Below, piece after piece: positions 5,310 to 58,422 of a stretch of 64,000 nucleotides of DNA. The stretch comes from Chrysemys picta bellii (Eukaryota): positions 12,090,001 to 12,154,000 of the forward strand of contig NC_088803.1 in assembly GCF_011386835.1 (NCBI RefSeq). Direction: 5' to 3'. Position numbers and translations under genes: made by a program. The notes under the pieces are model-generated. The model was not told the DNA's origin. It saw only the letters and a program-made list of their open reading frames with translations, and did not search any database. Position 1 is the stretch's first letter; each line of letters opens with the position of its first letter.

Positions 5310-7670
5310 GAGGTATACGTCGGTTTCCTCTTTCTCCTCTCTCCATGTGACATATCTAGTGATGGAGAAAAAGAAATAATTCATTAGGGCTGATGCTGTA
5401 CAATGAATCTGGGTGGATTTCTGTCCCTTTGATTCTATAATAATTCACACTATCAACTGGGTTTATATTCTCTAACAATAAAAAAACAATTTTAAAAAAT
5501 CCCCCAAAACCTGTGTCACATTCAAACTTTGCACAGAGTTTTGTAACAGAGAATTCCCCCTGTTCCCCCCCGCCTGCCCAATAAAGCAACAACACAGTTA
5601 ACTGATCACTTTCTGCCCTTGTCCACAGGTTTTTTGTTTTTTTCATGTGTGGATTAATAGATTTTAAGGCCCAAAAGGGCTATTAGAACCTGTATAACAC
5701 ACACCATTGTTTCCTCCGGTTTCCTGGACATTGAACTTAATAACCTGTATTTGGCTACTGAAGATCTTCTAGAAAAGCATCCAGGGCCAGATCTCTAAGG
5801 CTATTTAGCCACTTAGTAGGAATTTAAAAGAACCTAGGCTCCCAAGGAGTAGAAGCTTCAATGGGTGTTTGCCACCTCTATGCCTTTAAAAATCGGCCCC
5901 TCCATCTTGATTGGACGGCATCAAGAGACAGGGAATCCACCACTGAACTTTGTAGTTTGTCCCACAGGATAATCACCCTCACTTTTAAAAGTGTGTGTTT
6001 ATTTCTCATTTAGATTGATCAGGCTTTAACTTCCAGCTATTGGTTTTTGTCCTTCCTTTGTCAAGATCCCTTTAGTACTTGCTCCTTTCTCTCTATTCCC
6101 TGTAATCAAGTCAGCTCTCAGTCTTGTTTTTTATAAGCTAAAGAGTTGGGCTCTTAAAATGTGAACCCCAGAACTGGATGCAGTATTCCATTGCCTGTCT
6201 CACCAGTGCTGTATAGAGAGGTGATTACACTTTCGTGCTCGTTATTCCTCTGTTTATCCATCCAAGGATCACATCCACTCTCTTCGCCATGGCATCGTAG
6301 GGGGAGCTTATTCTGAGTTGCTCCTCCACCTATGACTCCTAAACTTATTTGATGGGGGATAGGGTCATACGGACAGACGTTCTAGGACATGAATGTGATT
6401 GTATCCAGCTAGAGCCTGAAATGAGGGCGGGATACTGATCAGCAGCACAGAAGACAAGAGACTGTATAGAGGTTCCTGCCCAATGCACAAAGGAAGCCTC
6501 CCAATCAGGCACACATTCAGACTCTTCTCACTCTTATTGCCCTAGTGACCGACCAAGGAACACAAAACCCTCTTATTATCAGTTATGAATTGTGAACTAT
6601 TAGTTATTGATCAACCATTCAAGGTTACTGATTAATTCCTGGCTATATGGGTTCGTGGTGATCCCATCGGATAGGTCCTTCAAGGAACTGTAAAAACATA
6701 CAGCCAACTATTAGCTCTCAGCAGTTGCTTGACTGTCATGAGTCTGTAGGGGTGGAACTGCAGACCAGCTCTGTGTAGCAAAAAGAGCTGCAGTAACTTA
6801 GTACACCGGGCCACTCTCTCTGTTCAGTAATATCAGGAGCTCTAAAGGGATATAGCGGGGGGAAGAAAGGAAAGTGTACCCTTGTAAGGTTCTTAGATAA
6901 CCCCATTACTGCAGCACACCTCATAATACCTCTTGAGGTACAGCAATGCTGTTATCCACATTTTATGGATGGAGAGCTGAGGCAGAGAGAAAAGAGCCAA
7001 ATGTTTAAAGATATTTTGTGCCTAGTGCAATTTTCAAAAGCAATTAGTGCCTAGCTCCCAACTCACTAAGCACCTAAATACCTTTAAAAATCGAGCCCAG
7101 AGGGACTTGGTCAGTACTACACATTGATGCTGTGGCAGAGCAGAAAAGAGAAGTCAGGTCTCCCAAACATCACCATAGTGCCCCAATCATTGGACTATCC
7201 TTGCTCTTGAGTGCAAGGTTGGAGCAGCAAATGACCAGGCAAAGTTTGTTATGCAGGTGTCGCTGCTTCCCAAGCTGTCAGGAATGCCAAGCCCCATTCA
7301 GTTCATTTCTAATGTGGACCCCTTTCGTGTGTGGTGCTCAGCACCTCACAAGAAATGATGAGGGGTTCAACTCCCATTGTAATCCATGGAGAAGATTCTC
7401 AACCGGAGACATGTAGCATCTCCCAGGACTGGGCAGGGAAAGTGAACCTTAAGAAAATGATGCACTGCCAGGCAGAAAGAGAGAGAGACAGACAGAAAGA
7501 AAGGAAAAGAAGGATATATAGATAGGGGGATGTGTAAGGATAAGGGTTGGTAGAGCGAGGTTTTGGTCACAGAGACAGATACTTGTTTAAAGGTTAGATA
7601 GATATGTAAAGAACTCAACAGAGAGATGAACCGATAAATAAGTAGATAGATAGAAGGATGAGTAATTGGC

Positions 7671-7740
<70 letters not shown>
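7671..7740. repeat. (GATA)n microsatellite, about 17 units, in the inferred OR intron
   Basis: Perfect tetranucleotide run. The paralogous array is at 55545-55633. Confidence 0.98.
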
Positions 7741-7741
<1 letters not shown>

Positions 7742-7927
7742 GGGGCTTAACACATAGATCTTCTTTGTGTTTCATGCCTTTCTCTAGCAGTATCATGATG
7801 AGATAGATGCTTAAGTCCTTATTCAGGCAAAGCTGTCAGGAAGTGAGGACCCTGTCTAATAGGAGTGTTCTTCTAAGTGAGGTAAAGTCTGAGGAAGAGT
7901 GTGAGGGTTTGCCCTGAGGCTGGTAAC

Positions 7928-8280
7928 ACTCACCTTTAATCCTCAGCATGAAGGAGTGACTTCTCCATTGACGGTGACTGGGTTTGGTCTCACAGTCAGA
8001 CTTGTTCTCTGCTCGGGAGACACTTATATGTTGCTGGGGGGCGGGAAGTCTCTCTCTCCTGTAGCCCAGCATGATTGTTTGCCTCACTCAAGCCCTTATA
8101 TGACTCCCGCTCTGGATCCTTGCAGGGTTTATCAGGACAGGAGCCTCCCCCTGGGATCTCCCTGGGGCCCTACTGCTGGTTAACTTTTACATTACTGTCA
8201 TAGTGGAATTAACACTGTGCTGTTGGTTAAAATAGTGTAACACCAAAGCTGACGCCATGAACATTTGAATCCCAGAGGAA
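7928..8280 (-). promoter_or_regulatory. Putative OR promoter plus non-coding first exon for the OR at 4368-5309
   Basis: Minus-strand AG|GTGAGT donor (GT at 7933-7932), TATAAG-like box at 8094-8099, Olf/Ebf-like sites at about 8146-8168 and 8270-8278. The block recurs upstream of the other three intact ORs. Confidence 0.6.
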
Positions 8281-8389
8281 ATCTCCCCTTTCTCCACATG
8301 GTCTGTGTCTGTGCCAAGAGCTCCAGAGAATGGGAAATAAATTTCCATGTCTTTAGTAATAACATCAGGCTCTAACAGACCATTTGCCA

Positions 8390-8570
8390 TCCATAGATCT
8401 CAAAGCACTTTATACTGCATGGCAGTATCTTTATCCCCATTATACAGATCTGGAAACAGAGGCACAGGAAAAGGAAATGATTCCCAAAGGGTTGTGAAAG
8501 AGGACATTGGCATAGCTGGGTGTAGCTTCCAGGCTTCCTCAGTCAAAGTGTATCACCATGGCTGCTGGAC
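8390..8570. mobile_element. MIR/CORE-like SINE remnant
   Basis: ccccattatacagatctggaaacagaggcacag resembles the MIR/CORE conserved segment. Similar pieces near 6950, 54830, 56330 and 61170. Confidence 0.5.
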
Positions 8571-9009
8571 CACACAGACTGAGAGCCTTTGTCTATTAAC
8601 GTTCAAAGATTTCCGTATGTGTGAGAGGGATTTGTATTGCTGCCCAGCCCTGTAGCATCTGAGCAAATTCAACATAAGATCAACAGTAATAGCAAAATCT
8701 CTTCTTCATTTAATGCAGACTCTGGCTCTTTCCTCTTTTTGGGGTGGGGTGGGGACGAAGCCCTCTGCTTTGGGGTGGAGTTTTTGGTATTGATTTTTTT
8801 GATTATATTCATTCTTTTTTTCTGGGTGGAGATTTGGTTGGGGTTTGTGGAGTACATGGCAGAGTCATTTTATATTGTTAAATACTATAGAATCAGAGAA
8901 AAATTAGAGTCGGAAGATACCTCAGAAGGTCATCTAGTCCAAACCCCTGTTCAAAGCAGGACCAACCCCAACTAAATCATCCCAGTCAGGGCTTTGTCAG
9001 CAACAAAGT

Positions 9010-19488: not shown

Positions 19489-20760
19489 TGTGACAGTCAG
19501 CAGCGACCCCCCCTTAACAGCTAGCAGCCTTTATGGCAACCGGCGGCCATTAAGGGGAAGCAGAGACTTCACTACACAGTAGCCTGAACTTTTGAACTGT
19601 CTTTCCTTCTCTGTCTTGAGGCAGTGGGAGCTGGTCCCAAGCCAGTTTTCACTGACCAGATAGCAGAAGTGCAAGGTTTGTTGACCACCAATCAAATGCT
19701 AACACAACCGGAGCCTGTGTTTGAGTGTGTATAAAAGATCTTTGGCTTTTGTATGAGTTAAAGTTTTTGTACTAAGGTGCAAAGCTCTCCTTTCTTCTGC
19801 AGAATAAAGTAACCTTTTTCCTTATTCCTGTCTGGCTGTTATTGGCTCTCAGCTAGGCGAACCCGATATTTTGATAACAGTTTCTGGCACCCCAGATGGG
19901 ACCCTTCTAGCTCGGACATTGGACTCCGGACGGCTTTGGCGAACTAGGAACAGCACCAACGGGGTGCTTAACCCCTTTTTCCCCACTTCACCGCAGCCCC
20001 TGGGGTTCATGCTCCGATAAGGTGAGTCCTAATAGGATAAGGAAACACTATCTGGCTCTGGTTCTGTTCTCGTCAACTGGTTAATATATTTCTGTCTCAT
20101 ACACTTCTGTGTTAGGTGTGTGGGCAGAACTGAGCTTCTCGTTCGTAATTCCTCAGTGTGGAAGCCATAGCGTGAGAGGAAGCCCTGAGGTCGAATTGAG
20201 ACCCTTCTGTTCCGTCCCCTGTAGCAGTCGGTGTGAGCAGAAACTGACTTAGAATTTCTGGATTAGACCATAATTCCCTCCGCCTTTCCATTTAATTCTC
20301 TATTTGAGTGTCAGAGGGGGGATGGGTGGGTCTCAGAGGAAACCCTCTAAGGATAGCCCTTTGGATTATATGTTAAATAAATGGCCTTTACCTGGTGTTT
20401 AAAAGTATTCCGGTAATGGGTATAGGTGGAAAGCCATTTGACTGTTCTGTATTGCGGGAAGCTACTGTAGAAATCTCTGGTATCTCCGCCTCCCATGCCT
20501 TTTTGCTAGCTCCTGATTCCCCAGTTAATCTCTTGGGCAGAGACCTGTTGTGTAAACTGCGTGCTGAGATTTTCTTTTCGGATGACAGGATCGTCCTCTG
20601 GTTACCTCAAAACCAACTTCCCCAGCTGTGTGCTGCATTAACCCAGGCTTCAAAGAACCCAATCCTTCCTACGGGCCTGATCCTACCCGTGCAACTCAAA
20701 CAGGAGGTACAAGCCTCCCTATGGGGTACTTCAAAGGCAGACTTGGGCACTCTCTGGACA
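19489..20760 (+). mobile_element. Truncated ERV1-like provirus: 391-bp 5' LTR, Arg-type PBS, leader, gag stub fused by deletion to protease
   Basis: LTR TG...CA 19489-19879 with TATAAAA at 19730 and AATAAA near 19803. PBS TGGCACCCCAGATGGGAC at 19885-19902, donor AG|GTGAGT near 20023, gag stub [21 protein letters not shown] (20322-20402), protease C-half [19 protein letters not shown]. Confidence 0.85.
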
Positions 20761-20761
20761 G

Positions 20762-23140
20762 AAGAGTCATGGCTGACTAACCTAATTGCCTTCTATGAGG
20801 AGATAACTGGGTCTGTGGATGAGGGGAAAGCGGTGGATGTGTTATTCCTTGACTTTAGCAAAGCTTTTGATTCGGTCTCCCACAGTATTCTGGCCAGCAA
20901 GTTAAAGAAGTATGGGCTAGATGAATGGACTATAAGGTGGATAGAAAGCTGGCAAGATTGTCGGGTTCAACGGGTAGTCATCAATGGCTCCATGTCTAGT
21001 TGGCAGCCGGTATCAAGCGGAGTGCCCCAGGGGTCAGTCCTAGGGCCGGTTTTGTTCAATATCTTCATTAATGATCTGGAGGATGGTGTGGACTGCACCC
21101 TCAGCAAGTTTGCACATGATGCTTGTGACGGGTTGGATCACAGAAACCCCCTTGGGATCTGCCACTCGATGTGCCAAGACTACTTCTGCCACTTTTCCCT
21201 CTGTCAGCCTGGGAATCCAGCACCCTGTCTTGCTGAGCCAGACACACCCGTCTGCTCCAACACAGACCCAGGGTCAGAACCAAATACCCAAAAGCTGCAG
21301 ACTTAACTGAAAGCAGCTTACAGAAGTGTGCTTATCTTTAAGACTCAGATGTCCAACTCCCAATGAGGTCTAAATCCAAATAAATCCATTTTACCCTGTA
21401 TAAAGCTTATGCAGGGTAAACTCATAAACTGTCTGCCCTCTATAACACTGATAGAGAGATATGAACAGCTGTTTGCCACCCCAGGTATTAATACATACTC
21501 TGAGTTAATTAATAAGTAAAAAGTGATTTTATTAAATACCGAAACTAGGATTTAAGTGGTTCGAAGTAGTAACAGACAGAACAAAGTAAGTCACCAAGCA
21601 AAATAAAATAAAACACGCAAATGTCTAATCAAACTGAAAACAGATAAGAACCTCACCAGTTCCAGAATGCTCCCTTTTACAGACTAATCTCCTTTTAGCC
21701 TGGGTCCCGCAATCACTCACACCCTTGCAGTCACTGTCCTTTCTTCCAGTTTCTTTCTCGTATCCTGGGGGGTGTAGAGGCTCTCTCTTTAGCCAGCTGA
21801 AGACAAAACGGAGGGGTCTCCCATGGGCTTAAATAAACTTTCTCTTGTGGGTGGAGACCCCCACCCTCCTATGCAAAGTCCAGCTCCATAATGGAGTTTT
21901 GGAGTCACCTGGGCAAGTCACATGCCCATGCATGACTGAATCCCTTACCAGCCAAGCCGCATTCCTGGGAAAGCCCAGATGTGGATTGGTGTCTCCAAAT
22001 TCATTGTTGGCTTAAGTGTTTCCTGATTGGGCACTTACTGAGAATAGTCCTTTCTCAGCAAGCTGACCAACTGCTTCACTACAGCCTACTTATAATCAAA
22101 CAAGTATGCAGCCAATATTCATAACTTCAAATACAAAAATGATACATGCATACAAATAGGATTAATAGATTCAGTAGATCACAACCTTTACAGAGATATG
22201 TTACATGGCATATGCAGTATAAAACACATTCCAGTTATGTTATATATATACATTCATACATAAAGCCTTATCGGAGGAGTGGTAGATATGCTGGAGGGTA
22301 GAGATAGGATACAGAGGGACCTAGATGAATTAGAGGACTGGGCCAAAATAAATCTGATGAGGTTCAACAAGGACAAGGGCAGAGTCCTGTTCATAGGATG
22401 GAAGAATCCCATGTACTGCTACACTCTAGGGACCGAATGGCTAGGCAGCAGTTCTGTAGAAAAGGACCTAGGGGTTACAGTGGATGAGAAGCTGGATATG
22501 AGTCAACAGTGTGCCCTTGTTGCCAAGAAGGCTAATGGCATTTTGGGCTGTATAAGTAGGGGCATTGCCAGCAGATTGAGGGACATGATCATTCCCCTCC
22601 ATTTGACATTGGTGAGGCCTCATCTGGAGTACTGTGTCCAGTTTTGGGCCCCACACTACAAGGAGAATGTGGAAAAATTGGAAAGAATCCAGCAGAAGGC
22701 AACAAAAATGATTAGGGGGCTGGAACACATGGCTTGTGAGGAGAGGCTGAGGGAACTGGGATTGTGCAGAAGAGAAGAATGGTGCTGGGGGCAGGATTTG
22801 ATAGTTGCTTTCAACTACCTGAAAGGGGGTTCCAAAGAGGATGGATCTAGACTGTTCTCAGTGGTACCAGTTGACAGAACAAGGAGTAATGGTCTCAAGT
22901 TGCAGTGGGGGAGGTTTAGATTGGATATTAGGAAAAACTTTGTCACAAAGAGGGTGGTGGACTACTGGAATCGGTTACCAAGGGAGGTGGTGGAATCTCC
23001 TTCCTTAGAAGTTTTTAAGATCAGGCTTGACAAAGCCCTGGCTGGGATGATTTAGTTGGGGATTGGTCCTGCTTTGAGCAGGGGGTTGGACTAAATACCT
23101 CCTGAGGTCCCTTCCAACCCTGATATTCTATGATTCTATG
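20762..23140 (+). mobile_element. 5'-truncated CR1 (RT to 3' tail), split by an LTR at 21124-22270
   Basis: [29 protein letters not shown] and SKFAHD, resuming after the LTR in ORF 22279-23055 and ending in an (attctatg)n tail at about 23124-23147. Confidence 0.93.
21124..22270. mobile_element. Solo LTR of an abundant turtle-type LTR family
   Basis: Begins TGTGACGGGTTGGATCACAG and is closely similar to the copy starting at 62624. The far end is truncated. Confidence 0.75.
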
Positions 23141-23149
23141 GTTCTATGG

Positions 23150-30149: not shown

Positions 30150-30781
30150 TTGAAATATTCTGCTGTAAATAAGTAGCTTATCTACACTTGAAATCTTCTA
30201 ATGTAAACATGTACACAAATACTGAATGGTAAACAGATGCTGAAAAGACTTAAAACAAAGGAATACTAATTAAGAACACAAAATGAAACAGTCAGACAGG
30301 TTATTATCCTTATCACTGAATCAAAACTCAAGCATGCAAGGTATAATATAACAGGCTGAGCTGAAGACAAAGGGATGACATATATAGATATAGATATAGA
30401 TATAGATATATAGATATATATAGATAGATATAAAACACGCACACAGATACAGGGAGAGGGATAATGTCCATACATTTCAAAGGTGTGTCCTCATGAAACT
30501 CACTGTACAAGATTGTCCTCACAAATTTTCACCTTGAATCTGGTCCTATAGACTACAAAAGCCTATGATGATGGCCAAGCTACCAACCTAGGGCTCAACC
30601 AACCAACCAGTCACCTCTTTTAGCTACCATATGAAGATAATAATGAGGAATTCTCACACATAAATAATTCCTTAGTCAACTAGACGTAAAACTATAAAGA
30701 CACTAAAATGCAACAGTTCTCTATCTTTCAACATGCACTTGATCCAGCACCAGCCACTAGTAGTGGTTTCTTTATATAATC

Positions 30782-31710
30782 ATAGCATCATAGAATATCA
30801 GGGTTGGAAGGGACCTCAGGAGATCATCTAGTCCAACCCCTGCTCAAAGCAGGACCAATCCCCAACTGAATCATTCCAGCCAGGGTTTTGTCAAGCTTGA
30901 CCTTAAAAACCTCTAAGGAAGGAGATTCCACCACCTCCCTTGGTAACCCATTCCAGTACTTCACCACCCTCTCTGTGACAAAGTTTTTCTTAATATCCAA
31001 CCTAAACCTCCCCCACTGCAACTTGAGACCATTACTCCATTGTTCAGTCATTTGGTAGAACAGAGAATGGTCTAGCTGCATCCTCTTTGGAACCCCCTTT
31101 CAGGTAGTTGAAAGCAGCTATCAAATCCCCCCTCCCCCCCGCTGCCCCATTCTTCTCTTCTGTAGACTAAATAATCTCAGTTCCCTCAGACTCTCCTCAT
31201 AAGTCATGTGCTTCAGCCCCCTAATAATTTTTGTTGGCCTTTGCTGGACTCTTTCCAATTTTTCCACATCCTTCTTGTAGTGTGTGGGTCCCAAAATTGG
31301 ACACAGTACTCCTGATGAGGCCTCACCAATGTTGAATAGAGGGGAATGATCTTGTCCCTCGATCTGCTGGCAATGCTCCTACTAATACAGCCCAAAATGC
31401 TGTTGGCCTTCTTGGCAACAAAGGTACACTGTTGACTCATATCCAGCTTTTCATCCACTGTAACCCCTAGGTCCTTTTCTGCAGAACTGTTGCCTAGCCA
31501 CTCGGTCCCTAGTGTGTAGCAGTGCTTGTGATTCTTCCGTCCTAAGTGCAGGACTCTGCACTTGTCCTAGTTGAACTTCATCAGATTTATTTTGGCCCAG
31601 TCCTATAATTTGTCTATGTCCCATTGTATCCTATCACTACCCTCCAGGGTATCTACCAATCCTCCCAGTTTTGTGTCATCTGCAAACTTGCTGAGGGTGC
31701 AATCCACGCG
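30782..31710 (-). mobile_element. 5'-truncated CR1 nested in the hAT element
   Basis: Antisense CR1 3' ORF pieces (MDEKLDMSQQC..., [14 protein letters not shown]) and tail at 30782. Confidence 0.92.
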
Positions 31711-42003: not shown

Positions 42004-43017
42004 AACTAGTAAGAGGTAATAAGATCACAATTATTCCTTTGAGGTCATAGATTAGTCCAGGAAAGGAGAGACGAATTTAGGTGGCCCATGTTAGGAGATT
42101 CCCTATGCATCTACCAGAGGGGGGGAAGAGAAAAGATGGGGGGGCAGGGAAGAAGTCGGTTCAGCCTGCTTATGGAGCTACAGCAATAACTGCAGTTTTG
42201 TACCCCCACTTTATCACTAAATTGTTTTCTTCCTAACCAGGAGTCAGATTCTATTCTATTCACGTTCTTAAAACAATGCCCATCCCTGACTTATGTAAGC
42301 CCTGGGGCCTTGACAATTTGTCCCTTATGGACTAAACTCATTCCTCGGATTTAAGCCAGTTATGTTAAATGTTCACATTAATTTACATTTTGATAAAACA
42401 GCCAAAGTTTTATGGGTGGGGTAAAACATAGGAGTACTGTTAACTTTCTATAGCACTTTATGCTCTAAAAAGAGGTTGGTTCCTAACTCCCTTAGGCTAC
42501 CACTTTTTCACAGAGGCTTACACATGCTTTATTTGGTTATGTTGACTGAACTGTAAAACCCAACTCAGCCCTTTGGCCCCCATACCAGTCAGCTGACTCC
42601 AGGGACAAGGGACCAGGCTGGATCAGAGGTTCTGGAACAATTTTTATAGTGGGGTGTTGAGAGTCAGTGAACCAATCTGGAAACATAGGATGGAAACCAT
42701 AGGATGGAAGCCAGGGGGTGCGCTTCAGCACCATGGGCAGGAATGGTGGTGGTGGAGGGTCTGGCTGGGGCGGTGCATGACTACCATGATGGGGTGAGAG
42801 GCTGAAGATCCTCACTGGAGTGAGAGAAGATAGGAGCCCAAATGACTGGACAACACAAAGTATACGATTCACATAAAGTTGAATAAGAAATAGAAAAAAT
42901 AATACATTTATAAAAAGTTCAAAATAAATTTAAAATACTAATGAATAAAATACAAAAATATTAACAGACTTAAAAAAGGTAAAATAATAAAAACTGAAAA
43001 TAAAAGAATTGTAAAAT

Positions 43018-43364
43018 TGTAGGGATGCATAGCTCCCGAATCGCCAGTCCACAGGCGCAGCAAACTGCTCCCATGGCTACGAGGCAGGAGTGACCTTCAA
43101 TCCAGCGTTTGTGTTTGGGAAACTTATTTGGCTGATTTGATTGTACCCTCGCAGCTGGTGTTCACGCGCTCAAGAGATGGGTTCGTTATCTTATGTGCAT
43201 GTATACTGCCTGGCTTTTCTATGCGCAAGATTTGTACCAATGAGAAGCGTTGTAAGCAGGGAAGTGTAAAGAATAAAAGCCCCAGGAAAAGTTCCTGGAG
43301 GTAGAGGGGCTTTTCGGCTACCACAGACCTGGTGTTCTGTTTCCTTTCCTGCGTTGTCACCACA
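43018..43364 (+). repeat. 5' LTR, 347 bp
   Basis: TG...CA termini, CCAAT near 43236, AATAAA at 43272-43277. Identical to 47916-48262 by inspection. Confidence 0.97.
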
Positions 43365-43366
43365 GC

Positions 43367-43384
43367 TGGTGACCCCGACGTGAT
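43367..43384 (+). promoter_or_regulatory. Primer binding site, tRNA-Trp
   Basis: TGGTGACCCCGACGTGAT, 2 nt after the LTR. The same 18-mer I recall as the avian leukosis/Rous sarcoma virus PBS. Confidence 0.9.
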
Positions 43385-43452
43385 GACCCCGTACTCACCG
43401 GCTGGATATGCCGAGCGCGCCCGCGGCTGTTTGCCGCCCCTTATTCGTGAGT

Positions 43453-43644
43453 ATGGGGGTCGAACTTTCCAGTGCCCAGAAGGAGCACACAAGAGAGTTC
43501 AAGATTACACGGCAGCGATCATGCATCGTTGTCCCGGTCGCTCATATTGAGGACCCCCTAAGGGAAATAGACCGCCAGTGCCCCTGGTATCCGGACTGCA
43601 GGTCGGTATGGCTTCATGACTGGAAAACAGGTTGGAAACTTTGA
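43453..43644 (+). pseudogene. Betaretrovirus-like Gag matrix (p10-type) stub, 63 aa
   Basis: MGVELSSAQKEH...CPWYPD...LHDWK, and removing one A gives WKQVG. Matches the MG...CPWFP..G...DWKRVG pattern of MMTV/MPMV/HERV-K matrix. Confidence 0.75.
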
Positions 43645-43726
43645 GGGCATAGAGGAAGGAAAGGAGTAAGTAATTATAGGCATGGGGATTTCAAATCCCC
43701 AGGATGATAACTGGAATGGAAAAATG

Positions 43727-44096
43727 TGTATGAGACAGAGTTTTTGTACCAAGGTGCAAAGCTCTCCTTTATTCTGCAGAATAAAGCAACTCCTCCTTAT
43801 CCCTGTCTGGCTGTTATTGGCTCTCAGCCAGGTGGACCCAATATTTCGGTAACAGTTTCTGGTGACTCCGCCGGGACTCTCCTGGCTCGGACATTGGACT
43901 CCGGACGGCTGCGGCGAACTGGGAACGGCGCCAACGGGGTGTTTCACCCCTTTTCTCTGCTTCACCGCAGCCCCTGGGGTTCGTGCTCTGATAAGGTGAG
44001 TCCTAATAGGATAAGGAGACACTCTCTGGTAAAACCCTCTAAGGATAGCTCTTTGAATTATATGTTAAGTAAATGGCCTTTACCCGGTGTTTAAAA
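43727..44096 (+). mobile_element. Captured R-U5, Arg-type PBS, leader and gag stub of the ERV1-like family also present at 19489
   Basis: Collinear with about 19750-20050 and 20341-20404. U5 ends at 43854, PBS TGGTGACTCCGCCGGGAC at 43860-43877. Confidence 0.88.
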
Positions 44097-45506
44097 AGAA
44101 ATAGTTACACCTTGTGTAGAAATTGATGTGGCTAGTGTTGTGGAAATTGAATTGTGGAAAACATGTGCAGTATATATTGTAGTAGAGGTGTAAGAAATGC
44201 AAACCTACCAATATAGGTTGTGTTGTCTTGTTCAGATCACTGTAAAGAAGTAAAAGGCAATCAAAAGTCCGGGAAAGTTAATTGTGTCCCTTTTTAAGTA
44301 ATAATCTTTAAGCCGTGGATAGCTTTGGATCTGGAAGCAAGCCAGAAAGCATCTGTATTAATGCAATTTTCTAACTAATAAGGTAGTAGCCACTGAAACC
44401 TGGGCTGCATATGAAACAAATACAAGGAAATATGTGGTGATTTCTCTGTTTTGCCTAAAATCAACAAGAGTATGTGTATGTAAAGGAAATATTTTAAGTA
44501 ATGACTGACTGCCCAGAAGGGGTAGACCTCGGTTTTTTTGTCTTTCAGATCATCAGAGAAAACGGATGCCAGCTGAATAGCATTCGATGTACCATGCATT
44601 TACTGGTACAATAGGAATTATTTTTGTGTTCTTTGTCCTGTCTTGTGATGTTTGTCTTGTGGCCAGAATTGTTGTATTTAATATTTTCATAGGACAGTCT
44701 AGCTCAAATTTAAATAGAAGGGTTAAATCAAAAAGCAGATACTTGTTTTATTCATCTTGGAATACAAAGTGTTTGGATAAATCAGGAAAATGTGATATAC
44801 TAAAGTCTGATATATTTGCTTAAGTAAGAAAAAGAAACTTCATTGGCCAGATTTTTAATTGCAAAATTGTTGTTAAAATTTGCATACCAACAGTCTTTGG
44901 AAACAAGGACATGGAAGGTTAACCCACTCCCCATATTGCCCATGGGATCCTTCTGGCTACCTCAGATTTCTAGCCAGAGGGCTGGGGAGGGAGGAAAGCG
45001 ATTAGACACCTGAGGTTGTACCGAGTGAACTCCTCAAAAGTGGGTGTGCTTGTCCCGGTTTGTTGCTCCAAAGCTCTGTAATAAAGTTATTTTACTGGAA
45101 GAGTGTACACGGCATACATTGAATAATAAGACTAATGTACTGTATAATGGCAATGTGTATGCGTTCATTGTTGGAAAAAAGTGTATAAGTGAAGAGTGAA
45201 AGTTTCCTTTGTAGGTTAAAAGAAGCCGAGAAAGGGAGAAGAGGAAAAAGCACGGAATGAGTTAACTGAGGGAAAAATAGCTAGCAAGCTCAGTCCAAAG
45301 ATAAGACCTGGCTGACAGCCACGAAAAAGGGGGGCCTAAATGTGCCCAAACAACTGAGATTTGTAAAACAATGCCAGGCACTAATGAAATGTGTTAGGTT
45401 TTTTTCTCACAGATAAAAGAAGTGCTACCCAAAGACCCTAGCAGCCCTGCCGTTTATTGAAACAAGGAAACGGAGTCTATGTAAAGTCCATCAACGAAAG
45501 ACTGCT

Positions 45507-45710
45507 TTGGCTCCACACTGGAAAGGCCCTTTCCAAGTCCTGTTAACCACCAACACTGCTGTGAAGTGCCAAGGACTGCCCACCTGGACCCATGCTTCTC
45601 ACTGCAAAAAGACCCCTCCACCTGGAGAGGATTCTCCAGCTGCTAATCAGCCTATTTCGTCTTCTAGCTCTGCTGTGCCTCCTGGACAGCAGGGAAAGAG
45701 AACAAGGTGA
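45507..45710 (+). pseudogene. ERV1-type integrase C-terminal (GPY/F) fragment
   Basis: [32 protein letters not shown]. Confidence 0.88.
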
Positions 45711-45978
45711 AGTGCTAGTAACCTCTCCCTTGTCCACTGACAGACCTACTGTTGCTTTGAATTTTTCTAGAAGAAGCAAAACCATTACAGGGTGATGTGC
45801 TAGTAACCTCTCCCCTACATGATGCTAAACCACACTGTTTCAGGAAAAGAGAAGAAGGAACACTTGCTTCCTTGAAACCACAAAGTCCAGGAATTCCTGA
45901 CTACAAGAGACATTAAGAACTGACCCTGGTAAAGAAACAAAGAATTATAACCTGGAAAAAAAGAAACTTGTGGGACCC

Positions 45979-47261
45979 ATGCTTGGGAACGTGGTATTGA
46001 TTAGATTTTAAGGTTTATTTTACAGGCTGCGCCCTGTGTTTTGGATAAGTCCTTCAGCATGTATTGCCCTCCCTAATTGGATTTTAAATGATAAGTACCA
46101 AAGGCACCTTGTTGCCATTGCCCCTGCCATCTCCTCTATTACACTATTACCCCTGTAACACATCCAAATACAGACAATGACCCAGAAGTTGCTGACAGAG
46201 ATGGTATTGAATATCACTGAGGCTGGGAAGGCATTGCAGTGGGATCTAGCATGTTCAGGCTTGGCCCACTGCCCTTACAGACACATCAGGAGTACCATCT
46301 GATCTGTGGCATGAAGACATACTCGGAGACTTTCTGGGTGGAAGTGCAGACGTTCTCAGTGCTCCTTCCAAGCATATGGACCGGTTGAGGGGGTGTGGGC
46401 TCCCACATACCGAATCCTGCTGGGTCCATAGGGAGGATGCATGTGGGATTGGGTAATTCACCAAGACATCTGGGAAATTAGACTACCTGGTATGCCCAAT
46501 TGATTTTAGTAAGTGCTCCGGAGATTACATCTGACATTTGGATGGGGTTAGGGAGTCAATGGACATTTTGGCCGTTAGAACCCCCACAGCTTCAGTGTAT
46601 ATGTAAACTGAAGCCAGGAGAAGTTGTCACTGTTTATGACTACGTTTGCTGGGAGGGTAGGGGACAAGGAACTACCCTGACAGGACACTTACTCTTTTAA
46701 GCTAATGATAGCTGTGTGTATGTTAATGCCACCACATTGCAAGACATACATTTTAATCTCACTACCACTGCAGGCAACCATATCATTTACTGGCCTGCAG
46801 ATAGAGTTTTTCAAGTAGCCCTTAGGTTCCAGATACTTTTTAATTGGACTAGTTTAGTATCTGATAGATTTCAGAATTTGTTTTCACTGTTACCAGAGAT
46901 TCAGACAATCTCTGAAGTACAAGGGCAAATTCACATGCTTTATAATATATATTAAGTTGAAAAGTATGCTTTTCAGACAGCTTATAGAGTATCCATTTTA
47001 TGTACTAAGTAGGATGTATTGTGCTTTATGATTAAGATTGTACAACAGCCCCATTATATTATTGTTATGGGAATGTTATTGCTTGTGTTGCTATTAGTTA
47101 GCTTAGGATTATGTTATCATTGTTGTAAAAGACGTAATAATAGTAATACCTTTCATGTTTATGCTAATCATGCATTGTCATTACATCCAATCAGAACCCC
47201 TAAGATTGAAGCATCTGATGTAGAATTTGAAGTCCAGGACTTAATGCAAATAGAGATTTAA
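45979..47261 (+). pseudogene. Decayed env with a long TM subunit
   Basis: KYQR|HLVAIAPAISSITLL cleavage/fusion-peptide-like site at 46093-46149, heptad-like TQKLLTEMVLNITEAGKALQWDLAC, Cys-rich middle, membrane anchor IIVMGMLLLVLLLVSLGL. Several stops and frameshifts. Confidence 0.65.
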
Positions 47262-47283
47262 GAATGTTTGTTGTACTAGAAGT

Positions 47284-47666
47284 AAAAAAAAAAAAAAAAA
47301 AGGGGGGGGGGAGGAGTCGTGGAAGCAGAGAAAGAACTGTCAGAAAAGAACTGCTATGCATGACAGTTTGTTAGTAAGAGTCAGGCTAACTGTAACCCTG
47401 ATAACGCGAGATTTGTAGAAGCGAGGATTGTGTGAGGCGGGTGAGAAAGTACTGTGTGAGAAGTTATTGTGACCTTGTGTAGATAAGGTCTAGAAAATAT
47501 TGTATGTTGGCAAGAGTCAAAACAAGTAAGGAATTAAGATATCAAGATGGCCTATGTATAACAAAATGCAGCTGTCCCTCATTATTTCTGTAATGAAAAG
47601 TATAAATGCAAGGTCTGTTAAGTACCTGCCTTGTTCCTGTTTGCAAACCACTCAATTTGCAATAAT
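47284..47666 (+). mobile_element. Internal PPT (A18G10) followed by a U3-like segment of a different LTR type
   Basis: Polypurine run at 47284-47311, TATAAA at 47601-47606, AATAAT (broken polyA-like signal) at 47661-47666. Confidence 0.6.
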
Positions 47667-47915
47667 AGAGTATTGATTAGGTATAGCTTTATACCCCCTT
47701 TGTAGCAAATTATGCCAATAATACTTGTGCCAAAGTAGTTAATTGTTTTATTTACAAACCCCGTGGGGGTGTTTGGCAATTGGTCAAGCCTTATGGGATT
47801 GGCGTTTTGCTTTGCTGTTTTGCTTAGTGTATACCCAATCTAGTGGCATTGTGTATGCTACCCTGCGAGAGTGTTTTGTTTAAACACCGCATTTATAAAA
47901 TAAAACAGGGGGGGA

Positions 47916-48262
47916 TGTAGGGATGCATAGCTCCCGAATCGCCAGTCCACAGGCGCAGCAAACTGCTCCCATGGCTACGAGGCAGGAGTGACCTTCAATC
48001 CAGCGTTTGTGTTTGGGAAACTTATTTGGCTGATTTGATTGTACCCTCGCAGCTGGTGTTCACGCGCTCAAGAGATGGGTTCGTTATCTTATGTGCATGT
48101 ATACTGCCTGGCTTTTCTATGCGCAAGATTTGTACCAATGAGAAGCGTTGTAAGCAGGGAAGTGTAAAGAATAAAAGCCCCAGGAAAAGTTCCTGGAGGT
48201 AGAGGGGCTTTTCGGCTACCACAGACCTGGTGTTCTGTTTCCTTTCCTGCGTTGTCACCACA
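47916..48262 (+). repeat. 3' LTR, 347 bp
   Basis: Preceded by PPT AAAATAAAACAGGGGGGGA. Identical to the 5' LTR by inspection. Confidence 0.97.
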
Positions 48263-49554
48263 TAAAATACATACAAAACCATAAAAGGGGAAATAAAATA
48301 AAATGAAACTTAAAATATATAAACAACAATAAAATCAAAAAGGAAATACACGTAAAATATATTAAAAAGGTAAAAATATAACTATTAAGAAAAGACACAC
48401 ACACAAAAAGAAAGAAAAAAGAAGTACAATTGCAAAACTGAGGGCGAGAGTCCATGGGGTTTGTGCTCCTATATCACAGGTGAGGAGCTCTGGTGTGTGC
48501 CCCCGTGTCCCCCTCTCTGCCCCCATGTGGACAGGGCTAGACAGCAGTCTTACTCTGGCCATATGGCCACCCCAGCTTGGGAGTGAGGGGCGGCGCCCTC
48601 CCGGGCTTCCGGATCCACAGACAAAGCCCGGGGGGAACCACTCACATTTATACTTGCTGGACACAAGTGTTGTACAGGAGGCTAGGCAACCCCCCTGTTA
48701 TACACTGAGCAATGAGGGCTCCCTCCGTGTGGGGCAGAGGCGAGACCCTGCGCTCCAGGGCCAAAGTAGCTGGTGGACAGACCCCGCTGGAGCGGGGAAT
48801 GTCGGCAGGCGCCAGTCTGCCTTGGATGGAGTCATCTCCACTTGAGTAAGCAAGACTCCCCACAACCACCAGGCACCTCTTCTGTCAGTGGTTGGTGACC
48901 CTGACTCCTGGAGAGACCCCCGGGAGAGTGAGAGAGAGAGAGATGGGGTGTCCCTCAGCTGGGCTCCCTGGGGTGAGATTCAGCCCAGCCGCCATGGGGT
49001 ACACAAGGTACTAGGTGGAGAGGGGAAGGAGAGAGAGAGCCAGGCTGGACACCTCCGGGCTCTGCTCCCCTCTCTGCACCAGCCTGAGTGGGGGGCCTCA
49101 GGGGTTTTCCCAGCATGTACCCAGCTCACCCAACCTTGTGACATGGGGTCTGGGCCAAGCCTTCGGAATGAGGGGAGAGAAAAGGGCAATGCTGCCTCTG
49201 CCCGGGCTGTGCAGGGAATCACCCCGCCCGCCTGGAACTGGCCTCTGGGGACTCGGCTGGGATTGTAGCTCACTGAGACTTCCAGAGCCTGGCCCCATTG
49301 TGGTCACACCATGAAGGAGAACAGAAACACCTGCCTTTAAAATTCAACTGTATCTAGGGTGACCCCACCTGTATTTCAAGTTCCCTAATAGAGGACACTG
49401 TTGTGGTGGGTGAGCTCGAGGAGGTATTTCGGGGTGCTGGAGGGGTGTGTGTGTACTGGGAGATGGTATTTGGGAGGTGCTGGACAGAGTATTTGGGGTG
49501 TGTCAGAGCAGGGGCACCTCTCAGGACTGGGGGACCTCACGCAGGCATGCCACC

Positions 49555-53156: not shown

Positions 53157-55544
53157 GAGATGTACGTCGGTTTCCTCTTTCTCCTCTCTCCATGTGACAT
53201 ATCTAGTGATAGAGAAAAAGTAATAATTAGTTAGGGCGGATGCTGTACATTGAAGCTGGGTGGATTTCCCTCCATTTGATTCCATAATAATTCACACCAC
53301 TGAGATCATTGTTTATATTGTTTCACAATTAAAAAAAAACAAAAACAAAAAACCTGTGCCACAGTCAAGTTTTGCTCAGAATTTTGGAACAGAGAAATCC
53401 CCCCATCTGCCTCTTCAATAAAGCAACAACATAGTTAACTGATCACTTTCTGCTCCTGCCCACAGGTTTTTGGTTTTTTCATGTACGGATTAATAGATTT
53501 TAAGGCCCAAAAGAGCTATTAGATCCTGTATAACACACACCATGGTTCCCCCAGTTTCCCCCACATTGAACTCAATAATCAGTATTTGGCTAACAGAGAT
53601 TTTCTAGAAAAGCATCCAGGACCAAATCTTTAAGGCTATTTAGCCACTTAATAGGAATTTAAAAGAATCTAGACTCCCAAGAATTAGCAGCTTCAATGGG
53701 TGTTTGCCATCTCGATGCCTTTAAAAATCTGACCCTCCATCTTGATTTGAAGGCATCAAGAGACAGGGAATCGACCACTGATCTTGGCAGTTTGTCCCAC
53801 AGGTTAATCACCCTCACTTTTAAAAACATGTGTTTATTTATCATTTAATTTGGTCTGACTTTAACTTCCAGCCACTGTTTTTTGTCCTTCCTTTGTCCAC
53901 TAGTTTCAAGAGCCCTTTAGTACCTGCTCCTTTCTCTCTATTCACTGTAATCAAGTCAGCTCTCAGTCTTGTTTTTGATAAGCTAAAGAGTTGGGCTCTT
54001 TGAACTGTTTTTCACTTTGAAGCATTTTCTCCAGCCCAGCATCATTTTTGTGTCTCTTTGAGTTACAATCATCTGTGATCTTGCAACATTCTTCTTAAAA
54101 TGCGAACCCCAGAACTGGATGCAGTATTCCATTGCCTGTCTCACCAGTGCTGTATAGAGAGGTGATTACACTTTCCTGCTCGTTCTTCCTCTGTTTATCC
54201 ATCCAAGGATCAAATCCACTCTCTTAGCCATGGCATCGTAGGGGGAGCTTATTCTGAGTTGCTCCTCCACCTGTGACTCCTAAATTTATTTGATGGGGGA
54301 TAGGGTCATACGGACAGACACTCTAGGACATGAATGTGATTGTATCCAGCTAGTGCCAAAAATGAGGGCGGGATACTGATCAGCAGCACAGAAGACAAGA
54401 GACTATATAGAGGTTCCTGCCCAATGCACAAAGGAGACCTCCCAATCAGGCAGACATGCAGATTCCTCTCACTCTTATTGCCTTAGTGAACCATCAAGGA
54501 ACACTAAACCCTCTTATTATTGGTCATGAATTGTGAACTATTAGTTATTGATCGATCAACTATAAAATGAGCTGTAAAAACATACAACCAACTATTAGCT
54601 CTCAGCAGTTGCTTGACTGTCATGAGTCTGTAGGGATGGAACTGCAGACCAGCTCTGTGTAGCAAAAAGAGCTGCAGTAAATTAGTACACCGGGCCACTC
54701 TCTCTGTTCAGTAATTTCAGGAGCTCTAAAGGGATATAGCGGGGGGAAGAAAGGAAAGTGTACCCTTGTAAGGTTCTTAGATAACCCCATTACAGAAGCA
54801 CGCCTCATAATACCTCTTGAGGTACAGCAATGCTGTTATCCACATTTTATGGATGGAGAGCTGAGGCAGAGAGCAAAAGAGCCAGATTTTTAAAGATATT
54901 TTGTGCCTAGTTCAATTTTCAAAAGCAGTTAGTGCCTAGCTCCCAACTCACTAAGCACCTAAATACCTTTAAAAATCAAGCCCAGAGTGACTTGGTCAGT
55001 ACTACACATTGATGATCTGGCAGAGCAGAAAAGACAAGTCAGGTCTCCCAAACATCACCATAGTGCCCCAACCATTGGACTATCCTTGCTCTTGAGTGCA
55101 AGGTTGGAGCAGCAAATGACAGGCAAAGTTTGTTATGCAGGTGTCGCTGCTTCCCAAGCTGTCAGGAATGCCAAGCCCCATTCAGTTCATTTCTAATGTG
55201 GACCCCTTTCGTGTGTGGTGCTCAGCACCTCACAAGAAATGATGAGGGGTTCAACTCCCATTGTAATCCATGGAGAAGATTCTCAACAGGAGACATGTAG
55301 CATCTCCCAGGACTGGGCAGGGAAAGTGAACCTTAAGAAAATGATGCCCTGCCAGGCAGAAAGAGAGAGAGACAGACAGAAAGAAAGGAAAAGAAGGATA
55401 TATAGATAGAGGGATGTGTAAGGATAAGGGTTGGTAGAGCGAGGTTACAGAGACAGATACTTATTTAATGGTTAGATAGATCTGTAAAGAACTCAACAGA
55501 GAGATGAACCCATAAATAAGTAGATAGATAGAGGGATGAGTAAT

Positions 55545-55633
<89 letters not shown>
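55545..55633. repeat. (GATA)n microsatellite, about 22 units
   Basis: Perfect run, paralog of 7671-7740. Confidence 0.98.
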
Positions 55634-55635
<2 letters not shown>

Positions 55636-55821
55636 GGGGCTTAACACATAGATCTTCTTTGTGATTCATCCATTTCTCTAGCAGTATCATGATGAGATAG
55701 AAGCTTAAGTCCTTATTCAGCCAAAGCTGTCAGGAAGTGAGGACCCTGTCTAATAGGAGTGTTCTTCTAAGTGAGGTAAAGTCTGAGGAAGAGTGTGAGG
55801 GTTTGCCCTGAGGCTGGTAAC

Positions 55822-56190
55822 ACTCACCTTTAATCCTCAGCATGAAGGAGTGACTTCTCCATTGACGGTGACTGGGTTTGGTCTCACAGTCAGACTTGTT
55901 CTCTACTCGGGAGACACTTATATGTTGCTGGGGGGTGGGAAGTCTCTCTCTCCTGTAGCCCAGCATGATTGTTTGCCTCACTCAAGCCCTTATATGACTC
56001 CCGCTCTGAATCCTTGCAGGGTTTATCAGGTACAGCAGCCGCCCCTTGGCCCTTCCTGCTTCTGGGATCTCCCTTGGGCCCTGCTGCCAGTTATCTTTTT
56101 CAATTATCTTTGTAGGGGAATTAACACTGTGTTGTTGGTTAAAACAGTGTAACACCAAAGCTGATGCCACAAGTATTTGAATTCCAGAGG
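55822..56190 (-). promoter_or_regulatory. Putative OR promoter and non-coding exon for the OR at 52215-53156
   Basis: Donor GT at 55827-55826, cccttatatgactc, Olf/Ebf-like TTCCAGAGG at 56182-56190. Confidence 0.6.
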
Positions 56191-58422
56191 AAATCTCCCC
56201 TTTTCCCCCATGTGCTGTGTCTGTCCCAAGAGCCCCTGAGACTGGGAAATAAATTTCCATGTCTTTAGTAATAAATTATGGCCATCCATAGATCTCAAAG
56301 CACTTTGTACGGCATGGCAGTAACTTTATCCCCATTATACAGATCTGGAAACTGAGGCATGGGAAAAGGAAGTGATTCCCAAAGGGTTGTGAAACAGGGC
56401 ATTGGCATAGCTGGGTGTAGCTTCCAGGCTTCCTCAAGCCTTCCACAGTCAAAGTGTATCACCATGGCTGCTGGACCACACAGACAGAGAGCCTTTGTCT
56501 ATTAACGTTCAAAGATTTCTGTATGTGTGAGAGGGATTTGTATTGCTGCCCAGCCCTGTAGCATCTGAGCAAATTCAACGTAAGAGCGACAGTAATAGCA
56601 AAATCTCTTCTTCATTTAATGCAGACTCTGGCTCTTTCCTCTTTTTGGGGTGGGGTGGGGACGAAGCCCTCTGCTTTGGGGTGGAGTTTTTGGTATTGAT
56701 TTTTTCGATTATATTCATTCTCTTTTTCTGGGTGGAGATTTGGTTGGGGTTTGGGGAGTACAAGGCGGAGTCATTTTATATTGTTAAATTCAATAGAATC
56801 ATAGAATATTAGTGTTGGAAACGACCTCAGGAGGTCATCTAGTCCAACCCCCTGCTCAAAGCAGGAACTACCCCAACTAAATCATCCCAGCCAGGCTTTG
56901 TCAAGCCGGGCCTTAAAAACCTCAAAGAATGGAGATTCCACCACCTCCCTAGGTAATGTCCTGGTCAGCCCTGCAGGAATCACCAAAAGCACAAGGGGTG
57001 TTATAATTGACTATGGTGACTCCTTAAGGACTCAGATAGAGACGGGATCCCCACTGCGCCTCGTCCTGCACACACACAGGGAGGTAAACTCCCTGCCCCA
57101 CAACATTTCTGATTGAAATAGACAAAAGGGGAGTTGGGAAACGAGAGACCGATGGCTTGCCTGAAACCCCACCTGAGATCACAATAAATATCAGAAAACA
57201 GGTGTTCTGATTTCTAGCCCGGCGCCTTACTCGCTGGAGCACAGTGTAAGACATGAGGGGTCACATAAACTCTCCATAGCTCAAGCATTAGAGCACTGGG
57301 CTTGTAAGCCAAGGGTATCTCGACAATTTGGGATATTTTGCAAAGACTAATGGAGAATCCAAGAAACGCAGACAACAGGCTGTCACAAATGCAATAGGTT
57401 TCTGACAAGGTCAAAAGAGTTAGGAATATTATTTAAAATACATTGGGGGGAAAGTGAGAAGGGGAAAAGAACCCAATCTAGTATATAATAACTGAATACA
57501 TAACTGTTTTTTACTGGGCTGGTTGGTCACTTGTTAGCTGGTTTGATTTTCTGCAGGAAAAGTGGATTCTGAAGAGATTACACATAGTGAATGTGTAGTT
57601 TGAACCAGAACCCATTTAAATCCAGCATTTTTCAGACTGAGGGTTTTCAGTTTTTTGGAAAAAAAAATGATTTTTTTAAAATTTTCTATTAGCAATATAT
57701 ATTATATATGTGCTTGAGGGGATTAAAGATGATGGATATATATATCATCCGTGACGTCTTCTAAACAGACCCCTGCCTTTGTTTAATGTGAGCCTTTCAG
57801 AACATTTTCATAAGATTGGAAGAATTAATGGGGAAATCTAATAAATCCAGAATAGAACATTCTTATGATTATATCTCAAACCACCTTACAAGTATTCAGA
57901 AAATGTTTGAAGAATGATTTAAAAAGACTCAAGAGGAAAACAGAAAAAAAACCCACATTTTATTGCCACTTAATACTGAATAGTTCCCGGTCATGCCAAC
58001 TGGTAATTTTTTAGTTCATTTGTTTTGTTGTGGGAAAGGTTGTGATGCACACAGGAAGAGTAGCCTGATGCAGAGCCCTGGAAGGTCAATGGGAACCTTT
58101 CCCTTGATTTCAGTGGGAATTGGACTTGTTCCTCAAATCTTCTTTGAAAACTCTGAAACTCAGCTGAGGGTTAATGTAAACAAATCCATAAAGATAGAGG
58201 CAGCATAGGAAAAGTAGGAACCAAATCCCAATGGAACTCAACAGCTGTTCCCTGGCATGCAGGAGGTGCTGGGAGAGAGGGGAAGGAGTTGATAAGTGGG
58301 GCCCGCAGACCCCCCGGGGTACCCTTAGGGTCCATGGATCCCAGTTTGAGAAAGACTGACTTAGATGGTTCCTTTCTGACTAGTGAAATGATTTATTCCC
58401 ATTTCAATCAATTTCTCTGAAT

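Follow-up and report, generated by a model that had tools for sequence, protein, structure and literature searches.

Among the closest described counterparts of the element reported here is recKoRV1 of the koala, a recombinant of KoRV and PhER (PMC6112702; published systems are described throughout from excerpts of the papers cited). The turtle element is an endogenous retrovirus (ERV) at positions 43018-48262 (+ strand) of a 64,000-nucleotide stretch of Chrysemys picta bellii DNA (NC_088803.1, 12,090,001 to 12,154,000), referred to here as the window. In recKoRV1, the termini of one ERV, with its gag leader, env tail and long terminal repeats (LTRs), enclose a dissimilar, non-coding retroelement; the breakpoints show microhomologies, many independent breakpoints occur at many loci, and co-packaging has been proposed (PMC6112702). 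The turtle element has the same features, with several independent breakpoints and many loci. It works alike but is not a member of the KoRV and PhER group, since its shell is class II and the relatives of its cargo env are from turtles. The turtle cargo is class I, whereas the PMC6112702 excerpts do not state the class of PhER. The cargo also brings its own R-U5 and primer-binding site (PBS) together with the polypurine tract (PPT) and U3 of a third family, and the turtle helper type lacks most of env.

Three other systems share parts of this design. Harlequin, in human, is a non-autonomous multi-ERV mosaic with an internal LTR piece, which amplified after recombination and for which co-packaging and polymerase jumps were proposed (PMC4724089). 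However, its parts are all class I and its LTR divergence averages 8%, compared with 0.16% here; most human recombinants lie within class I or within class II (PMC4724089). By the Vargiu mosaic definition used for Harlequin, the turtle element occurs as several sense copies of one mosaic, with different flanks and the same LTR at both ends; the definition also excludes a third, unrelated internal LTR, and here partial LTRs of two other families (LTR-B and LTR-C) lie inside. The mouse pair ETn/MusD couples an env-less class II helper with more numerous non-coding passengers that have the helper's ends (PMC6466679), and we find the same pairing, passenger excess included. Trans-mobilisation was demonstrated in the mouse, whereas here we infer it; the lineages are unrelated, and the interior of the turtle passenger is traced to two class I families. 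PyERV, TgERV-F, SERV/BaEV and XtERV-S also recombined across ERV classes (PMC10536682), but these gained a working env and stay coding, whereas the turtle element has swapped nearly all coding sequence for a decaying class I cargo. Beta-related ERVs of turtles are already known (PMC6001957). Literature searches, in which most hits were judged from their listings and which did not extend to Repbase or Dfam, found no paper on the turtle family or on such a cross-class passenger. Relative to recKoRV, Harlequin and ETn, the new features are a class II shell on a class I non-coding cargo, two PBSs, three-level nesting and repeated capture.

A young family of cross-class chimeras

We interpret the element, with a probability of about 0.8, as a recently amplified non-autonomous element whose class II shell acquired a class I cargo by template switching and was copied in trans. 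The original prediction, made from the sequence of the window, had proposed the same core, and helper-type relatives, 6-bp target-site duplications (TSDs) and a shared PBS bear it out, with mobilisation deduced from them. First, the element belongs to a family. An exact pattern beside J1, the 5' junction of shell and cargo, was found at 48 loci in the genome, with J1 present in 48/48 and a reversed control giving 0; this count is a minimum, and two of the loci lie on small contigs and are possible duplicates. A search with the whole element returned full-length copies that are 96-99% identical (26 of 4,075 candidates scored). From the genome searches 36 further loci were retrieved, 35 of them with two LTRs. 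A perfect 6-bp TSD flanks 34 of these 35 (two inside homopolymer runs), and 20 of the 35 LTR pairs are identical, with 19 differences over 12,121 sites in total (0.157%). At a turtle substitution rate of 1-2e-9 per site per year, this would correspond to a mean insertion age well under one million years. The sole two-LTR copy without a TSD (L040) has a perfect internal PBS and may be an inter-locus recombinant or an assembly join. At L050 / L101, another J1 copy lacks 43761-44055 (poly(A) signal, U5, internal PBS and splice donor) and is inserted in the env of an older C-like element that is a relative of its own cargo.

These copies bear on two simpler explanations. An assembly chimera of two repeats might be suspected in a repeat-rich region where the evidence comes from contigs and not long reads, but J1 recurs at 48 loci with distinct flanks and is bridged by contigs of two sequencing runs, X5 (43573-43823) and X9 (43640-43776), which bear two other organism labels, B and C. 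A single nested DNA insertion with later deletions, never mobile as a unit, would account for two PBSs, two PPTs and inner LTR fragments, which are typical of nesting. However, it is at odds with at least 48 loci, TSDs of their own at 34/35, shared env stops and several LTR subfamilies that enclose the same interior. Moreover, the cargo has no TSD and no complete LTR of its own, the junctions cut within U3, and the host sequence jumps from matrix to env. Distinct flanks and own TSDs at many loci, together with the bridging contigs, lead us to reject both explanations, the assembly chimera as regards J1, as vanishingly improbable. Nor is LTR-A, the outer LTR, native to the inner ERV1 family, a further possibility raised at the outset: it is native to class II gag-pro-pol elements. 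The shell had been described as brand-new; it represents a family and not a one-off virus, and LTR-A is itself recombinant.

The element spans 5,245 bp. Those parts that had been predicted occur in the predicted order; the full list is as follows.

43012-43017 (+): left copy of the TSD, TAAAAT (6 bp)
43018-43364 (+): 5' LTR-A, class II, mosaic; nt 1-200 like the J2/J3 shells (other junctions, below), nt 201-347 like an older J1 lineage
43367-43384 (+): PBS1, tRNA-Trp(CCA), 18/18, common to helper-type elements
43453-43644 (+): beta-like matrix stub, 63 codons then a stop, with a splice donor inside at 43601/43602
43625-43718 (+): linker of about 95 nt, no source found, in J1 chimeras only
43719-43854 (+): junction J1, then the last nt of LTR-B U3, R and U5, with AATAAA at 43780-43785
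43860-43877 (+): PBS2, Arg-type, mismatch at position 4
43878-44100 (+): LTR-B leader, major splice donor at 43995/43996, deletion of about 284 nt near 44030, gag stub
44094-45371 (+): AT-rich non-coding segment, with a deletion scar at its left edge and a splice acceptor at 44549
45372-45707 (+): family C integrase tail (MLVIN_C), splice acceptor at 45413
45592-47258 (+): family C env, broken and internally deleted; longest stop-free frame 84 codons
47284-47316 (+): internal PPT of family C; homopolymers expanded and variable among copies
47318-47609 (+): LTR-C U3 through its TATA box; junction K1 with AAATGC microhomology at 47604-47609
47604-47915 (+): class II env in three pieces (47604-47654, 47681-47801, 47799-47896) and terminal PPT (about 47897-47915)
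47916-48262 (+): 3' LTR-A, same as the 5' LTR
48263-48268 (+): right copy of the TSD, 6 bp

The two LTRs align without a difference (347/347), and TAAAAT stands on both sides, as had been read from the sequence. PBS1 is fully complementary to the 3' end (with CCA) of tRNA-Trp(CCA) genes in the same genome. The matrix stub (43453-43641) matches Gag_p10 with an E-value of 1.4e-4 and 22.1 bits, slightly below the cut-off of 23.9, and 45417-45707 matches MLVIN_C with an E-value of 3.8e-13, in line with the predicted beta-like matrix and ERV1 integrase tail. The internal PPT and U3-like segment are a genuine LTR start, that of family C.

Helper-type relatives and probable mobilisation in trans

The Gag_p10 profile found 67 loci, 19 of which were retrieved for comparison. 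Among them are helper-type elements of 6.28 kb that have the same Trp PBS, 6-bp TSDs and LTR pairs 99.5-100% alike. One of these (L068) encodes a Gag_p10 matrix, a p24 capsid, two zinc knuckles, a dUTPase-protease and a reverse transcriptase (RT)-thumb-RNase H-integrase (IN_DBD_C) series, and both this domain set and the 6-bp TSD place the shell and the helper type in class II (beta-like). The best solved relative of the helper pol is 7sr6 (E 5.9e-134), which we take to be the HERV-K RT. An open 897-codon pol is present at five helper-lineage loci among 17 RVT_thumb matches, and 3/5 of these also have full-length gag and pro frames. Relatives with open gag-pro-pol exist, but most of their env is deleted. 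A relative (L074) retains a gamma-type env piece (TLV_coat). Chimera loci are more numerous than helper-type loci.

On this basis the element was very probably mobilised in trans by env-deleted class II helpers. It keeps only the cis parts of class II: LTRs with attachment (att) ends, the Trp PBS, the leader and gag start, the env tail and the PPT, with the leader and gag start as the likely packaging signal. Transcription would start from LTR-A, packaging and reverse transcription would be carried out by Gag-Pro-Pol of the env-deleted relatives, and insertion by the helper integrase would give the 6-bp TSD.

The outer LTR carries traces of recombination among shells. LTR-A is only 77-79% identical to helper LTRs over its length. 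Its nt 1-200 are 92-100% like shells L071, L075, L076 and L080, and over nt 201-347 it agrees at 100% with L044, an older J1 copy; the U3 and PPT are of J2/J3 type and the R-U5 of J1 type. The mosaic is identical in the two LTRs and so was formed no later than during reverse transcription; it would point to strand transfer between different co-packaged RNAs. Three J1 copies (L042, L049 and L052) have a helper-type 3' end, which, like the LTR mosaic, is expected of such transfer. Fast point mutation of LTR-A was considered and rejected, since the ladder in the LTR tree is accounted for by block swaps.

Other class II sequences were seen alongside. A second class II family (L102, L103, L106 and others) has a Trp PBS, an open 906-codon pol and near-identical LTRs; its RT is only 64% similar to that of the helper lineage, and it was discarded as a helper because it has no nucleotide match to the element. 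The helper-type env-deleted elements (L067:5586-6119 and relatives) have an open frame of 173-178 codons after pol, an N-terminal part of env. The part of this frame that corresponds to 47604-47654 shows 88-96% conservation among shells with LTRs 70-88% alike and is a possible cis element. Another young ERV (L080:4272-8706), with 389-bp LTRs 99.7% alike and a different PBS, adjoins a truncated class II shell and an N gap.

Cargo donors, junctions and repeated capture

The 3.9-kb interior would have been taken from the RNA of a non-autonomous ERV1, an LTR-B shell that holds the non-coding segment and the integrase tail, env, PPT and U3 of family C. Twelve LTR-B loci were retrieved. Three donors (L088, L090 and L093) are non-autonomous elements of 5.2-5.4 kb with LTR pairs 98.7-100% alike and 4-bp TSDs, and they already hold 43721-47575 at 87-95%. 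A coding-type LTR-B relative is class I and matches only the first 380 nt of the cargo. Within the window, the R-U5, PBS and leader of the cargo match 19750-20055 (306 nt at 86%), and 44032-44096 adds a match at 94%; the R-U5 match predicted from 19750 onward is therefore longer than had been noticed and includes the PBS and leader. Family C has 442-bp LTRs, a 4-bp TSD, LTR pairs 96.8-99.8% alike and a PBS that is presumably of Pro type; the integrase tail, env, PPT and U3 of the cargo originate from it. An older non-autonomous element contains a relative of the non-coding stretch, at 75-83%. The MLV-type (murine leukaemia virus) integrase C-terminus, an MLV-like RT/RNase H and the 4-bp donor TSDs identify the cargo as class I (ERV1). 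Near 44096, where two families had been suggested to meet in the cargo, LTR-B sequence does give way to other sequence, but the join is a deletion scar that donor copies already carry; in donor L086 the site holds 500 nt more. The cargo is a chimera within a chimera, and one plan was followed twice: the 5' end of a shell, then cargo as far as a fragment of LTR-C U3, then the env tail, PPT and LTR of the shell.

The cargo had been regarded as an old, decayed genome that was rescued. However, the donor families are young (LTR pairs 96.6-100%). Three env stops are common to 33/34, 33/33 and 33/33 of the J1 copies covered and absent in 4/4 donor or family C copies checked; the decay therefore came before amplification, as had been predicted from the identical LTRs, but at these sites after capture. 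A tree of the cargo (without L048 and L063, which lacked the segment) was poorly resolved and was not used for the order of events.

Gamma-type Env has an immunosuppressive domain (ISD) and a CX6CC motif between heptad repeats HR1 and HR2 (PMC9967133). In the cargo env we found no TLV_coat match and, by simple pattern, no CX6CC or ISD-like motif. The family C env (L117:6463-9054, +), of which 45592-47258 is a relic, encodes an 864-residue glycoprotein with a furin site at 418 and a long ectodomain after it. This protein has no CX6CC or ISD, no Pfam env match and no match in the PDB, making it an unclassified env on a class I backbone; its named homologues are only from turtles (49-89%), and an open frame of 873-874 codons is present at many loci. 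Its predicted fold has a mean pLDDT (predicted local distance difference test) of 31. Language-model look-alikes are F-type fusion proteins, a weak result; Lokiretrovirus Env is a known F-like case (PMC7947760). A class III (rhabdo/Monjiviricetes G) assignment, weakly indicated by a 317-residue piece, was dropped as the full-length protein gave the F-type look-alikes, also weak.

Neither end of the cargo coincides with an RNA end. J1 lies 12-14 nt past the first base of the LTR-B TATAAA in 5/5 close donors, nearer than the roughly 20 nt first estimated. The 3' junction K1 lies on the LTR-C TATA box, with AAATGC microhomology to class II env, and not at AATAAT (47661) as proposed: 47610-47654 is class II env, 91% identical to the helper type, with no match to LTR-C. 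Both ends are inside U3 beside TATA boxes, so the cargo is not bounded by RNA ends, although it had been thought to span roughly the limits of an RNA. The U3 in the window tracks family C past the point where D90-type donors diverge, which calls for one more recombination or for a donor that is not in the sample. No source was found for the linker 43625-43718: 48/48 genome pattern hits are J1 loci, and the 61 matches among 119 sequences are all J1 copies.

The same cargo was captured repeatedly. It is present in 10 of the 19 Gag_p10 loci retrieved, through J1 in two, J2 in five and J3 in three. At J2, the start of RT is joined to the non-coding segment with a 5-nt microhomology; K1 has 6 nt, and J3, K2 and K3 also have microhomologies. 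J2 copies hold 11 nt of undeleted donor sequence that is absent in 39/39 J1 copies, so J2 is a second, independent capture by a class II shell. A 323-codon frame of two J3 copies was found in 30/67 Gag_p10 rows, 28 of which are known by this frame only. Three more 3' junctions lie upstream of K1 and so cannot be derived from it by deletion. Capture would most likely have occurred by template switching between co-packaged RNAs at such short microhomologies.

J1 itself probably arose at the RNA level. The main rival, which we consider rather unlikely, keeps the same family and its trans-mobilisation but makes J1 a DNA-level event: an LTR-B element inserted into a class II provirus or immediately downstream of one, its promoter was then deleted as far as a point shortly after the TATA box, and template switching accounts for the 3' junction alone. 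A DNA-level 5' join followed by a template-switched 3' join is the classical route of oncogene transduction. The cap site is expected +25 to +31 from TATA, and about 12-17 nt of U3 at J1 that a capped donor RNA would be without speak for this rival, as do the 95-nt linker without a source and the nested ERV insertions that exist in the genome (L050 inside another ERV's env). However, J1 shows no TSD and no LTR-B start, there is no intermediate among the 48 loci, and a clean microhomology of 5 nt marks the independent J2. A few U3 bases could also be carried over if a jump from R to R landed on the 3' U3-R of a donor RNA.

Elsewhere in the window, 19489-20780 is a truncated LTR-B element (LTR 19489-19879, a different Arg-type PBS, leader and gag stub), cut off near 20780 by what we take to be a CR1 RT. 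A 2.8-kb direct repeat (6152-8999 and 54093-56903, 92-94%) and a 0.9-kb inverted pair (22273-23147 and 30774-31665, 88%) stand among many dispersed repeats.

Relics, splice-like joints and a possible role of the cargo

In our proposal, the element tolerates PBS2, the internal AATAAA and the internal PPT/U3 as relics. The predicted second, Arg-type PBS was found: it matches at 17/18 a tRNA gene with an intron, to which ARAGORN gave no name; by our reading of the anticodon loop, that gene would be Arg(TCT). The position-4 mismatch persists in 33/36 main-lineage copies, and donors show three different Arg-type PBSs. PBS2 is therefore not routinely refreshed by tRNA, which rules it out as the usual primer site, and it looks like a passenger. 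Of the three copies with a perfect PBS2, two also have an ancestral allele next to it, consistent with recombination. The internal AATAAA is unchanged in the 38/38 copies that include it, and 211 nt downstream the GT of the splice donor is retained in 36/37; L058 lacks this donor. In HIV-1 the 5' poly(A) site is silenced by a donor 195 nt downstream, and MLV regulates its 5' poly(A) site independently of the splice donor (PMC3694450). Whether the internal AATAAA is likewise suppressed by the splice donor that came with the donor sequence seems evenly balanced. Compared with donors, recent J1 copies have A and G runs of greater length and variability in the internal PPT (47284-47316), and LTR-C starts with CG or CA, not TG, in J1 copies.

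The element stretch is present in 20/24 listed public sequencing runs from seven studies. In the four runs examined, its depth is at least two orders of magnitude above that of the unique flank, a figure that includes contributions from donors and other chimeras. Three GT..AG joints were found: 43601 to 44549 (X1, X12), 43601 to 45413 (X1, X5) and 43995 to 45413 (X1, X12). The first two join the class II matrix donor to a cargo acceptor, so only chimeras can give them; such joints occur in 3/4 runs examined and leave 58 and 50 codons, respectively, before a stop. An exact-pattern search for the spliced forms as genomic DNA gave 0 matches.

The cargo may be retained for a benefit, as a portable splicing, export or packaging module and not as neutral filler, although this is unlikely. 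The segments 44535-44630 and 44862-45105 are retained in 15/15 class II structures compared, class II shells took up the cargo at least twice after an earlier capture by LTR-B, and chimeras outnumber helper-type loci. However, the 15 structures are related, with common deletions, and not independent; the folding of 44862-45105 does not surpass that of shuffled sequences (z -1.0); and high donor expression by itself would favour capture. A stronger proposal, which we hold equally doubtful, sees in the cargo core a selfish RNA module able to move between unrelated retroviral machineries. It would have passed from a C-like class I element to the LTR-B shell and then at least twice to class II shells, always by the same design, and would be kept because the two segments aid splicing control, export or packaging.

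Several points weigh against the origin by template switching and copying in trans that we prefer. The evidence for trans-mobilisation consists of TSD length, PBS, att ends and recombination traces, and no helper LTR among those retrieved is more than 79% identical to the whole of LTR-A. J1 lies upstream of the expected start of a capped donor RNA, with a textbook-based cap position, and no source that would allow a microhomology to be read at J1 was found for the linker. The sequencing runs are contigs whose RNA status is guessed, and the short side of the joints has 24-27 letters. Finally, the MLV case means that the U1 model of poly(A) silencing is not general.

With parents, junctions, helper types and near-zero LTR ages in one genome, the family indicates that uptake of class I RNA by class II particles is frequent enough to have given rise to several successful families. 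If the cargo core were a selfish RNA module, class barriers to co-packaging would be porous in a living germ line. The element is a naturally occurring case with two PBSs and two PPTs, and it gives recKoRV and ETn a counterpart in a reptile. Its sequence and RNA data offer a way to study cross-class co-packaging, helper coding loss and how an internal poly(A) signal is tolerated, and the family is a likely source of recent insertion polymorphism in its host.

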